Source: a virus (taxonomy: Duplodnaviria > Heunggongvirae > Uroviricota > Caudoviricetes). Taken from it: DNA of 64,000 bases. The stretch lies in the IMG/VR virus record IMGVR_UViG_3300028857_000005, positions 1-64,000 of that record; one strand, given 5' to 3'. This document shows, piece by piece, positions 34,096-36,975 of this stretch; within the stretch, counting starts at the first letter, position 1, and each line of letters starts with the position of its first letter. The notes under the pieces are model-generated. The model saw only the letters and a list, made by a program, of their open reading frames with translations, searched no databases and had not been told where the DNA came from. A program made the translations under genes and the position numbers.

Positions 34096-35232
34096 TCACA
34101 TGACCATGCGATCTTCTCTGGCTGGTCCCCATGCCTTCAACCTAATCGGCTTACCGAATGTGTCAAGTGGGAATAGCCCATCGTGAGTCATGAATCCATC
34201 AAAGACATCCAAGTGCCCGACTGCCAATGAATCAACATCGGTCATATCAATAGCCCATTGAATAGTCTCTACATCGTGCGGAGCAATCCTGAACTCACCA
34301 GCCATACTGGATTCAGTAGTATTATGAGGTTCGTCGGGAGTGAACCCAATCTCTCCCTCATGAGGTAGCGGTCCTGCACCGTGCCTAGTTGCGTAGGAGC
34401 GAAGGCAACCGGTTGTGTGTACATCTGTTACCCCTGCCTCACGCAAGATTGCCCTAGCGTTAGATGGTGTAGTCGTAGACCATGTGGTGTAAGGGTTGAA
34501 CCCGAAGTTCTCATCAAGGACGAATCCCTGTGCCCCCTCGAATACCGTATGACCATGCCTCAACTCTTCAAACAGATCAACAGTAGTGACAACATTGAAA
34601 TGGTTAAACATTGGAAGCATTGACCACACCAACGACTGCATCTTGGAATCCTTGAGGTTGGGATGATCAGGAATGATCATACCGTCACTGATGTAGAAGT
34701 CCCTGAGGGCCAGCATCTTTGGGTATACCGCGCTGAATCCAAGCTTGAAGTCTTCTGCTCGCAGTGCAAGCTCTGGGAACCTCAGGGAGTAATCAATGGT
34801 CTCGCCAAAGCCATTCCCAGTTGTTCCATGGTTGTCCTTGCCGCGTGCTTCCTCACGAATAACATTGACCAAGACGTGAAGAGCAGTGGTGACAAGAGCC
34901 TTACCGTCCACATTCAAGACAGGATTGAATCCCTTCTTGATGAGTGCGGACTTCTCATTGAAGATGTTTACGGGGTTGATCGTGCAGTAGGAACTAATCC
35001 AAGTAGGAACTCCTGACATCGTACCCGAGCCATAGCTGGCAAAGGTGTGGTGAATTCCCTTAGCGATCACATTATGGGCAGCTTGCTGTCCACCATTGAA
35101 CCTGACAACACGATCAGCATTGGAATGAGCAACGAGGGCATCGACTGTTGCGCCTTTACCCTCGTCACCCCATCCAAGACCTACAACGATATCAGCGGAG
35201 GGCTGCACTCTTCGTACCCGAGCGCTTGACAA
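34096..35232 (-). CDS. adenylosuccinate-synthetase-family protein (PurA/PurZ-like, 378 aa)
   Basis: N-terminal GLGWGDEGKGATVD P-loop. GGQQAAHN. C-terminal GHLDVFDG. Short, archaeal-like length. Confidence 0.8.
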   Translation of the reverse strand: MSSARVRRVQPSADIVVGLGWGDEGKGATVDALVAHSNADRVVRFNGGQQAAHNVIAKGIHHTFASYGSGTMSGVPTWISSYCTINPVNIFNEKSALIKKGFNPVLNVDGKALVTTALHVLVNVIREEARGKDNHGTTGNGFGETIDYSLRFPELALRAEDFKLGFSAVYPKMLALRDFYISDGMIIPDHPNLKDSKMQSLVWSMLPMFNHFNVVTTVDLFEELRHGHTVFEGAQGFVLDENFGFNPYTTWSTTTPSNARAILREAGVTDVHTTGCLRSYATRHGAGPLPHEGEIGFTPDEPHNTTESSMAGEFRIAPHDVETIQWAIDMTDVDSLAVGHLDVFDGFMTHDGLFPLDTFGKPIRLKAWGPAREDRMVM

Positions 35233-36130
35233 TAGCGTCGGTTACCCGAACAGCGATTGCGTTTCCGACAGTTGCGGACAGATCAGCCTTGATGTCATCA
35301 ATGCTACGACCAAGATCGTAAGCGAAGAGACCGGCGATCATCTCAGGAATTGCCGAGACATCCTGAACGATAACCACATTGTCAGGTCCGAAGAGATTTC
35401 CGTAGAACTCTTCCGAACGCTGGTACTTGGCTGCGGAGTTGTTGATCAGGAGGATTGTGACATCCCACTTCTCTGTAGCTGCCGCTGCGATACCCTCGAA
35501 GGACAGGTCACCGAGAGGCTGCTCACCGATGTACTTCTCGATGTGTGCGGCTGTAATCGGAATCTGCTTCTCATCAGCGATGAGGTAGACCTTGCCCTTG
35601 ACACCACGCTTGTCGAAAGCGTCAGTGCGGGTGTGGTATGCGAGGTAGTAGAACAACAGGTTGGAGGTCTCTCCACTGTTTCCACCACCATGACCCTCAA
35701 GGAACAGAACGTCCAGCGCCTCATCGATCTTGATACCAGATTCGAACTGGCTCATCTGCAACGGAACACGCTCATCATTCGCAGCGTCACCGTAAGCGGC
35801 AACTGCGATCTGAACGTCCTCAACGCCCTTTGCAGTGGTCAGATCGAAGACAGTGTTGAGCTTCTTCTGCATCTCACCGGGAATCGAACCCATGGAGCCG
35901 GTCTGGTCAAAACCAATGACCATCGGCTTCGTGAAGGGATGCTCCACGGTGTCAAGGGACTCACGAATGTTCTCGCCAGCCTTGTTGAGCTTCTTTACGT
36001 CAACAAGCTCATGTGCCTCATAGCGACCAGTAGCCTTGACGGTCCTGTCGTATGCGAATGCACTTCCTGTTGCGGCTCGCGTTGCGCTCACTGCGCTGTA
36101 GGCCGCTGCCGACCAACTTCCACCACCCAT
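35192..36130 (-). CDS. vWA-domain protein (MIDAS DQTGSMGS)
   Basis: VIGFDQTGSMGS motif; 312 aa. Overlaps the PurA-like start. Confidence 0.6.
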   Translation of the reverse strand: MGGGSWSAAAYSAVSATRAATGSAFAYDRTVKATGRYEAHELVDVKKLNKAGENIRESLDTVEHPFTKPMVIGFDQTGSMGSIPGEMQKKLNTVFDLTTAKGVEDVQIAVAAYGDAANDERVPLQMSQFESGIKIDEALDVLFLEGHGGGNSGETSNLLFYYLAYHTRTDAFDKRGVKGKVYLIADEKQIPITAAHIEKYIGEQPLGDLSFEGIAAAATEKWDVTILLINNSAAKYQRSEEFYGNLFGPDNVVIVQDVSAIPEMIAGLFAYDLGRSIDDIKADLSATVGNAIAVRVTDAIVKRSGTKSAALR

Positions 36131-36141
36131 TATGTTTCTCC

Positions 36142-36975
36142 TTAAATCATCGGTACGGCTGGGACATCAAGTGGATGCCACTTCGCAGGTCCGTACAACT
36201 TGGTTGCTACATCATTAACTTCATTGAAGAAGTCTCTTGCATTGGCTACGCCAAACGAGTGCTTCTTGAACGTTTCTAAGAGGAGCTTATCAGGGACTGA
36301 GGTCTTTGTCAACATGGCTGCCAGTTGGGCAACCATCATCTTCTCATCTGCCCCCGCTCCACCGAAGTACCTTGCAGGAGTAGGTGCGTCAGGCTTCAAT
36401 GCCAGACGACTATCCAATTCAACGCTGTGCCACCATCCATCAAGCATGAGGCCATGCTCACTTGGGAGTAGTGCGACTGTTCGAGGGTTGATATCTCCAT
36501 GAACGATTCCAGACTCAGCAGCTTTCTTGATTGCCGCCGCTCCACGCTTAGCGATCCATACCGCAGTGCGGGAATCAAACTTGGGGAAGTCCTCGACAAA
36601 CCACCAACCTTCTCCGTAATTCAGGGTCAGGTGGTCAGGTCCAAAGGAATGAATCTTAGGAAAGAACCTATTGAATTCAGCAGGCAGCTTGGCAAGTTGC
36701 TCAAGCGCACGCACAGCGACGATCTTACGATCATCGAAATCTTTTTCCATGCTCCATGCGATTGCATGTGCTGTCGTTGCGGTGCCATTGGCTACACGCA
36801 GTTGGTAATCTGGACCTTCAAAGAGAGGTACCAGTTTCACGAATGCCTCATGAGCATTGGGATCGGTATTCACGTCAGGGTGAAATTCACGCTGTAAGTC
36901 CCTAAGAGCATCCTTGGTCTTGGGAATGTTCAATGCCCGCCAAGTTTTGGCAGTCATGATCTTGGTGATATCCAT
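36142..36975 (-). CDS. protein-kinase-fold / APH-like phosphotransferase (HGDINPRTV catalytic loop, LDGWW)
   Basis: HGDxNxxN catalytic-loop-like and D-containing DFG-equivalent motifs. Confidence 0.5.
   Translation of the reverse strand: MDITKIMTAKTWRALNIPKTKDALRDLQREFHPDVNTDPNAHEAFVKLVPLFEGPDYQLRVANGTATTAHAIAWSMEKDFDDRKIVAVRALEQLAKLPAEFNRFFPKIHSFGPDHLTLNYGEGWWFVEDFPKFDSRTAVWIAKRGAAAIKKAAESGIVHGDINPRTVALLPSEHGLMLDGWWHSVELDSRLALKPDAPTPARYFGGAGADEKMMVAQLAAMLTKTSVPDKLLLETFKKHSFGVANARDFFNEVNDVATKLYGPAKWHPLDVPAVPMI

Follow-up and report, generated by a model that had tools for sequence, protein, structure and literature searches.

The 64,000-nucleotide (nt) stretch of viral DNA analysed here, positions 1 to 64,000 of IMG/VR record IMGVR_UViG_3300028857_000005 and hereafter called the window, carries on its minus strand three adjoining genes that form one conserved module: a J-domain/kinase-fold gene (K), a gene with a von Willebrand factor type A (vWA) fold (V) and a PurA-family gene (A). 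The invariant core of the module is V plus A, and K is a common, replaceable third member. We favour, with a probability of roughly 0.4, the interpretation that the encoded proteins form a purine-nucleotide ligase complex which uses an amine other than aspartate and is tied to nicotinamide adenine dinucleotide (NAD)/ADP-ribose stress, and that phages would use it to sustain infection or to counter immunity that depletes NAD or ATP. A search of the full-text literature returned no description of the K-V-A module. The original prediction, made from the sequence of the window, had called the combination an undescribed arrangement. This stands as far as function is concerned; the trio itself, however, has been deposited in more than 200 cluster C mycobacteriophages, where it is annotated as kinase, hypothetical protein and PurA-like protein.

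The three genes and their tight packing were confirmed. K (36975-36142, 277 amino acids (aa)), V (36130-35192, 312 aa) and A (35232-34096, 378 aa) are co-directional, and the list of open reading frames (ORFs) gives them exactly the coordinates first noted; the overlap of V and A, the 11-nt gap between K and V, and the motifs DQTGSMGS (V residues 75-82) and HGDINPRTV (K residues 159-167) were likewise found in the ORF list and sequence. Read directly from the sequence, the TAA stop codon of K shares bases with the strong Shine-Dalgarno sequence of V (TAAGGAG, with an 11-nt spacer, 36131..36144; TAAGGAGaaacataATG). The overlap of V and A measures 41 nt (35192..35232) with TTG 35232 as the start of A and 17 nt with the alternative in-frame GTG 35208; in relatives it ranges from 4 to 56 nt. 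K has its own ribosome-binding site, GAAGGA, just downstream of a tRNA-Ile gene. The 2.9-kb region holding the trio had no megablast match among deposited phages, so the window has no close sequenced relative.

Conservation of the gene neighbourhood, proposed at the outset as a check on the trio, was evident among relatives. Bacterial loci were collected with V alone, by searching GTDB species genomes with a 10-sequence alignment (119 matches, 80 loci kept), and viral loci (n = 47) were also found in IMG/VR through V alone, the locus ORFs being called mechanically. A gene of the A family adjoins V in 78 of the 80 bacterial loci, one of the two exceptions being a truncated contig, and in 45 of the 47 viral loci, the other two being weak generic vWA matches. 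This arrangement is far beyond chance. Among deposited phages, tblastn detected V in 219 and A in 239, with host sets that agree: 201-202 Mycobacterium phages (cluster C, Bixzunavirus), 10 Rhizobium phages and 6 Vibrio phages. The order in Tonenili is kinase, hypothetical, PurA-like, which corresponds to K-V-A, and metagenomic relatives with 46-75% identity retain it. Overall, the module ranges over Actinomycetota, Clostridia, Alphaproteobacteria, candidate phyla radiation (CPR) bacteria and several groups of large lytic phages.

The gene upstream of V is the variable one. It is K in about 21 bacterial and about 30 viral loci, while in 27 Clostridial loci (for example L063:5006-5629) K is replaced by a protein that we call X, which is about 205 aa long, has no Pfam match, and consists of an N-terminal segment rich in Met, Gly and Phe, a beta-rich middle and an acidic C-terminus rich in Met and Gly. 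In Vibrio and Rhizobium phages, ORFs of X-like composition occupy this place (L003:4096-4809 and L002:3690-4517); they are homologous to each other, and comparing them with Clostridial X gave an hhalign probability of 27%, at which homology is not established. Since K is found in some loci and X or another ORF elsewhere, V-A is the core and the third gene is interchangeable. Some Alphaproteobacteria/Micavibrio metagenome-assembled genomes (MAGs) carry tandem V paralogues in the order V-V-A (L049 6001-7993 and L066 6001-7992). In a phage-like metagenomic contig (L006/L007, 1-6004), a Cas3-like HD-helicase, a YfbR-like HD protein (DatZ family), a PTH2-like peptidyl-tRNA hydrolase and two ORFs of unknown function precede the module, which there reads N-K-V-A, N being an NrtR-like Nudix gene described below.

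V belongs to PHROG 2971, labelled ‘unknown function’, and had no match in Pfam at E<=0.1, generic vWA models included; with Pfam empty, its vWA Rossmann-like fold was recognised from structure prediction. The family is large: a search of 1.84 billion representatives of 50%-identity clusters places 1,117 clusters in it at E<=1e-30, a number that rises to 1,904 at E<=1e-10. An N-terminal arm of about 55 residues accompanies the vWA fold, whose metal ion-dependent adhesion site (MIDAS; D75-x-T77-G-S79, E154, D186) is complete, as D75, T77, G78, S79, E154 and D186 are all invariant. The very start of the protein is also conserved. A Met-Gly-x-x-x-(W/F/Y) motif opens 126 of 135 locus ORFs and 133 of the best 150 representatives of 50%-identity clusters, 141 of which begin with Met-Gly, and none of these best 150 carries a fusion that would bury the N-terminus. 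The model is less confident here than in the vWA core, with a mean predicted local distance difference test score (pLDDT) of 66 for residues 1-10 and 77 for residues 11-20. Two V homologues, P0222 (595 aa) and P0298 (581 aa), contain inteins of about 250 residues between KGY and C-(I/F)-I-G-D-E, immediately before the strand with the invariant MIDAS aspartate, a position consistent with a functionally critical site. The N-terminus of P0222 is of the cluster C phage type.

A MIDAS-bearing vWA adaptor encoded beside its presumed target enzyme is familiar from the MoxR AAA+/vWA pairs (CbbQ-CbbO, NorQ-NorD, CoxD-CoxE and BchI-BchD). Those pairs have an AAA+ motor, whereas no AAA+ cluster was found among the conserved neighbours of more than 120 module loci; here, judging from the J-domain of K, a motor could come indirectly, through recruited Hsp70. 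We know of no N-terminal glycine arm of the V type in MoxR-vWA systems.

A is a divergent member of the adenylosuccinate-synthetase-fold ligases. It matches Pfam Adenylsucc_synt (PF00709) at E=1.6e-47, and its nearest relatives in the PDB are bacterial PurAs (about E=1e-24), with no PurZ structure among the PDB matches at E<=1e-3. It falls well below the cut-offs of both NCBIfam models, scoring 137.4 bits against the PurA equivalog (NF002223, cut-off 402) and 36.4 bits against PurZ (NF038379, cut-off 300). Residues were counted across 128 family members, taken from the fetched loci and aligned to E. coli PurA, whose numbering is used here. A shares with PurA (EC 6.3.4.4) the fold and Pfam family, the P-loop GDxGKG (GWGDEGKG in the window), H41, Q224, the TRxGxGP segment and a C-terminal GP motif. 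The phosphotransfer residues are intact, with D13 in 127 of the 128 sequences and K16, H41 and Q224 in every one, and G12, D13, K16, G17, H41, Q224, T239, R272 and N295 are essentially invariant. In the guanine-specificity motif, K331 is His or Cys and D333 is mostly retained. By this count, A keeps every residue needed to phosphorylate position 6 of a purine nucleoside 5'-monophosphate using a purine nucleoside triphosphate (NTP), and its first half-reaction, the NTP-dependent 6-phosphorylation of a 6-oxopurine nucleotide, is probably that of PurA.

In contrast to PurA, which has its L-aspartate ligands, all 128 A sequences have R131, T300, T301, R303 and R305 replaced or deleted. R303 is deleted throughout, T300 has become W, F, H or Y in 115 sequences and T301 has become Q in 107; R305 is replaced by L, F, M or I and R131 by M, T, V, C or F. 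The residue comparison shows that aromatic and hydrophobic residues have replaced the positively charged L-aspartate pocket. New residues are found family-wide, namely Q38 (from N38, in 126 of 128), H126, E135 and H273 (from V273, in 126 of 128), plus Q301, and A, unlike PurA, is always paired with a vWA protein. In PurA, R303 touches both aspartate and the ribose O2' (PMC8342488). From this pattern we infer that A activates a 6-oxopurine nucleotide with a purine NTP and no longer uses aspartate in the PurA manner. A candidate His/Cys/Glu metal site (H126, C129, E135, H273) was dropped, position 129 being Thr in 28 members, including that of the window. Covariation between the V N-terminus and the A pocket, judged by eye, gave no usable signal beyond phylogeny.

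PurZ and PurZ0 resemble A in being phage-borne PurA homologues with altered substrate use, compact like the archaeal-type short PurAs. In PurZ, unlike A, position 13 is Ser instead of Asp (100% of 147 sequences from phages; PMC12884076); PurZ also keeps aspartate as co-substrate and travels with DatZ/MazZ/DpoZ or DutZ/DmtZ. A retains Asp13 and hence is not PurZ. A Pfam sweep of about 65 ORFs of the window, not exhaustive below 90 aa, found no PolA, YfbR-like, MazG or DUF550 companion. RefSeq names the cluster C homologues of A ‘2-aminooxy adenylosuccinate synthetase’, the PurZ label (for example NC_031080.1, 157315-158643); with Asp13 retained and the PurZ model not satisfied, these homologues look over-annotated.

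K combines two domains, the first of which had gone unnoticed. Its N-terminal residues, about 1-55, are a J-domain with HPD at residues 32-34, a motif kept in about 76-79 of the 82 family members. A profile of this region matched only J-domain proteins in the PDB (best E=2.3e-7), five family members gave weak Pfam DnaJ matches, and the helix II-HPD-helix III signature is present. The remainder (about 56-277) adopts a compact, bilobal protein-kinase fold. The fold assignments of the original prediction (PurA family, vWA with MIDAS, kinase) were therefore borne out by PF00709, the invariant MIDAS and the kinase fold of K; only its APH/ChoK label for K has to be revised, as the fold is of the Hanks type and the best structural and profile matches were not APH or ChoK.

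The residues expected of an active kinase are poorly kept. Of the 82 family members, 45 have Ala at the HRD aspartate position, 20 have Asp and 9 have Asn. The HGA of the family consensus is aligned with the HRD of StkP and PknA, and about 61 members have the DFG-like Asp. In long forms of K (about 350 aa), among them the ‘kinase’ of cluster C phages, a beta3-like Lys, the alphaC Glu and the DFG-like Asp are retained, and Ala stands at the position of the catalytic base. The short form in the window has D161 (HRD) and D179 (DFG-like), and it lacks the conserved beta3 Lys and alphaC Glu and has no evident glycine-rich-loop motif. The residues that are invariant in the family (W140, R144, H159, H174 and W181) are not the canonical catalytic ones. 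As the canonical catalytic residues are not conserved, K is probably a J-domain pseudokinase. The link between K and the cluster C ‘kinase’ comes through pairwise BLASTP and profile searches only, tblastn of K against deposited phages having given no match; the Tonenili kinase shows a weak DnaJ match in addition to Pkinase. Eukaryotic GAK/auxilin and the J-protein Rki of phage RB43 are examples in which Hsp70 is hijacked by a J-domain that is joined to a non-chaperone module or works with one; beyond the J-domain, they are not known to be related in sequence to K.

The connection with NAD comes from the neighbouring genes. N, the product of the NrtR-like gene introduced above, is an NrtR-family protein that combines a Nudix domain, its Nudix box intact, with a winged helix; it matches NCBIfam NF050029 at E=1e-43, a score under the equivalog cut-off of that model. 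It accompanies the module in about 54 of 84 loci, lying co-directionally upstream in Actinomycetota, divergently upstream in Acetobacteraceae and downstream in Lachnospiraceae. In the Antribacter soli chromosome, N-K-V-A sits amid glycoside-hydrolase and LacI genes and has no phage genes around it. At a locus where N and K diverge, the space between them holds two TTAGAC-N9-GTCTAA palindromes, and such palindromes probably serve the NrtR-like regulator as operators. In L039, the paired 21-bp palindromes between divergent N and K are TTAGACGGCATTGACGTCTAA and TTAGACGGATATTTGGTCTAA, at about 4519-4539 and about 4560-4582. Similar palindromic sites occur in L035 and L028-L031/L037, and in Acetobacteraceae loci TTAGGT-N8-ACCTTA lies over the V promoter region.

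Moreover, the module is found beside genes of Preiss-Handler NAD salvage. In 10-12 Clostridial loci the order is N-PncA-NadE-PncB-X-V-A (Pfam Isochorismatase, NAD_synthase and NAPRTase). Six large IMG/VR contigs (L093-L098) carry N-K-V-A, five of them reading PncB-NadE-PncA-N-K-V-A and the sixth being cut off within N. NadD is absent from these arrays. The occurrence of two different gene orders in two phyla points to a functional link with NAD/ADP-ribose rather than to inherited synteny. Clostridia MAG loci with complete PncA, PncB and NadE together with N are L051, L052, L070, L075, L077, L085 and L090. The window has an isochorismatase-domain ORF of its own (26328-26927, minus strand; Pfam 1.4e-17), with a weak match (3.4e-5) to a hidden Markov model of the PncA-like proteins from the V-A NAD-salvage operons; it is possibly a nicotinamidase of the same phage.

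Taken together, the interpretation that we favour is as follows. Starting from inosine 5'-monophosphate (IMP) or dIMP, and with an amine that is not aspartate, A would make AMP or an N6-substituted adenylate. V would be its obligate partner, an adaptor, regulator or substrate carrier acting via the MIDAS metal site and the N-terminal glycine arm. K would not act as a kinase but as a scaffold, its J-domain recruiting host DnaK/Hsp70, which would assemble or remodel the complex of V and A or switch its state. The bacterial module would be controlled by an NrtR-like, probably ADP-ribose-sensing, repressor beside Preiss-Handler NAD-salvage genes; given this repressor and these neighbours, the pathway would serve adenine-nucleotide or NAD homeostasis during NAD consumption. 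Lytic phages would most likely use it to maintain the adenylate/NAD pool while they infect, for instance when host defences deplete NAD or ATP.

Several points weigh against this interpretation. The substrate and product of A and the roles of V and K are our inferences. The column of R143, which bears on dimer-type IMP binding, is poorly aligned in the 128-sequence alignment. An aspartate site can be rebuilt from other residues, so that lost ligands are not proof of a lost substrate. In the window, K has Asp at both the HRD and the DFG-like positions, and residual catalysis is conceivable. N is not present in the window, and since most phage copies, the window included, lack N and most NAD-salvage genes, the NAD link rests mainly on bacterial or provirus-like loci; some of the IMG/VR contigs of 180-400 kb may themselves be bacterial.

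Large lytic phages are already known to carry gene sets whose context ties them to NAD/ADP-ribose metabolism, as the module does. These are NARP1, NARP2 and NARP3, of which the families are Adps/Namat, Nampt/Nmnat and, for NARP3, PnuC/NadR (PMC13464706). They differ from the module in consisting of entirely different protein families, and neither V nor A can be given an NAD-forming step. The module is therefore not one of NARP1-3; neither is it PurZ, canonical PurA, a TerY-P triad or a MoxR-vWA pair, and it is not in PADLOC.

Among the alternatives, it is rather unlikely that A is a true adenylosuccinate synthetase, an auxiliary metabolic gene boosting the flux from IMP to AMP for phage DNA and RNA synthesis, with V and K unrelated or minor regulators. 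Such an enzyme would match PF00709 with D13, K16, H41 and Q224 intact, as A does; it would be at home in the nucleotide-metabolism and replication region that the window represents (dUTPase, dCMP deaminase, DnaE-type polymerase, RecA), and GenBank indeed calls homologues of A ‘PurA-like adenylosuccinate synthetase’. However, the three arginines and two threonines that bind L-aspartate are lost in all 128 sequences, the score is far under the equivalog cut-off (137 against 402 bits), and near-obligate pairing with V across phyla would be unexpected for a stand-alone housekeeping enzyme. A canonical purA would also be expected in bacteria that have the module.

We consider it improbable that the amine used by A belongs to V, being the alpha-amino group that removal of Met leaves free on its N-terminal glycine, so that a purine nucleotide would be attached to V covalently via N6. 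K would then bring DnaK through its J-domain to load or unload the complex, and the NrtR-like regulator would wire the system to ADP-ribose/NAD stress. The loss of carboxylate-binding arginines from A and its gain of aromatic residues are compatible with this, as are the Met-Gly start of V, its aromatic residue 6, its lower-confidence N-terminus and the lack of burying fusions. If true, this would be a new kind of protein-nucleotide conjugation.

It is similarly doubtful that the module removes inosine nucleotides, A re-aminating IMP or dIMP released by deaminase defences (RADAR, Cad1, Kongming) and so blocking the accumulation of ITP/dITP or signalling by them, together with the ensuing NAD depletion. 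A keeps the machinery for activating 6-oxopurines, and the change of V273 to His with the deletion of R303, beside the ribose 2' position, makes a deoxy substrate conceivable. In Kongming, signals derived from dIMP and dITP trigger a SIR2 NADase (bioRxiv 10.1101/2024.12.20.629578), which would tie inosine nucleotides to NAD loss. Nevertheless, the only documented anti-Kongming factors are dNMP phosphatases (Dmp) rather than PurA-like enzymes, the bacterial copies are tied to NAD salvage and not to deaminase systems, and V, K and the lost aspartate site would be left unexplained.

There is also little likelihood that the module is itself a defence, abortive-infection or superinfection-exclusion system in which A drains GTP/IMP or makes a toxic nucleotide, with V and K as sensor or switch. 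It does form a compact island of three to four genes, mobile between phages and bacterial chromosomes; some copies lie near Cas3 and others near SNF2, Macro or PRTase/TRSP/StiP genes, and the kinase-fold proteins weakly match the defence kinases PD-T4-6, MkoA, PglW and MADS6. Yet no PADLOC v2 system model matches V or A, and K gave only marginal kinase matches; many copies are found inside NAD-salvage operons, and in strictly lytic large phages the module belongs to the replication and nucleotide-metabolism region.

Very unlikely is a role in pre-replicative DNA hypermodification, where A would supply an N6-substituted dAMP for incorporation into phage DNA, much as PurZ does for its base. PurZ is the precedent of a PurA homologue dedicated to a non-canonical base, the lost aspartate pocket of A suggests a different amine, and N6-glycinamide adenine exists in the DNA of phage Mu. 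Against it, ordinary bacterial chromosomes carry the same module under the NrtR-like regulator and next to genes of NAD salvage. Its conserved neighbours include no dedicated polymerase, dATP-clearing enzyme or lyase, and we know of no report of modified adenine in the DNA of cluster C mycobacteriophages.

The original prediction had leaned towards a TerY-type phosphorylation module accompanying the synthesis of nucleoside-like metabolites, or a kinase phosphorylating a nucleotide intermediate, and we now find either hard to credit. The TerY-P triad resembles the trio in that a vWA gene adjoins a kinase-fold gene near nucleotide metabolism; here vWA fold, kinase fold and nucleotide enzyme stand side by side, and in one bacterial locus a Ter-associated type of PRTase/TRSP/StiP gene is close by. 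That triad, however, needs an active kinase and a PP2C phosphatase. No phosphatase of this type was found among the roughly 65 window ORFs scanned or the conserved neighbours, and K, in addition to its J-domain, has unconserved catalytic residues, the HRD aspartate being missing in about three quarters of the family. With these residues unconserved and the beta3 Lys and alphaC Glu lacking from the short form, phosphorylation of V or of a nucleotide by K is unlikely. K can also be replaced by the non-kinase protein X, and V matched no Pfam model at the threshold used, the generic vWA models being covered and a TerY-specific comparison not having been run. Finally, the alternative that A is PurZ, in a phage with a 2-aminoadenine (Z) genome, is refuted at the sequence level in spite of the name ‘2-aminooxy adenylosuccinate synthetase’ borne by its RefSeq homologues and PHROG 1211, by Asp13, the failed PurZ model, the absence of PurZ structures among the PDB matches, and a DnaE-type replicase with no PolA/DpoZ, DatZ or MazZ families in the window sweep.

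If our preferred reading of A as a ligase for an amine other than aspartate holds, the family would add to PurA and PurZ a third functional branch of their superfamily, using a different amine and working only with a dedicated vWA partner. In that case, the link to the NrtR-like regulator and the Preiss-Handler genes would point to an unrecognised step of NAD or adenylate homeostasis, and the J-domain fused to a degenerate kinase fold would be a new phage route into host Hsp70. NAD depletion is central to the conflict of phages with bacterial immunity. Genetics is feasible in the cluster C mycobacteriophages, well studied and with more than 200 carriers of the module. Should A turn out to be an ordinary adenylosuccinate synthetase, its obligate vWA partner would still need explaining and the PurZ-type label in RefSeq and PHROG would still need correcting.

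The surroundings of the trio are phage-like, with a DnaB-like helicase encoded in the window in addition to the DnaE-type polymerase, RecA, dUTPase and dCMP deaminase already named. Between 21295 and 44596 on the minus strand, the window holds 29 tRNA genes and a transfer-messenger RNA (tmRNA) gene (40450-40797), in arrays that flank the triad on both sides; the nearest upstream tRNA genes include tRNA-Ile(AAT) at 37028-37100, 53 nt from the start codon of K. Homing-endonuclease-type ORFs lie among these arrays (Endonuclease VII at 30194-30604 and 27003-27434, HNH at 28127-28564). A Ro60-like protein of 511 aa (30586-32121, minus strand; PHROG 850, ‘RNA-binding protein’) has a TROVE domain (E=1.5e-15) and a Ro60-type vWA with DVSGSMG, and the related contig L004 has a TROVE gene at the same relative position (11123-12676). 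The window further encodes a YAcAr/YspA-related protein of the SLOG family, whose domain is predicted to bind a nucleotide ligand, as well as an SPFH/Band 7 protein (Band_7, 17525-18463, minus strand), a HAD phosphatase of the PNKP type and a calcineurin-like phosphoesterase.

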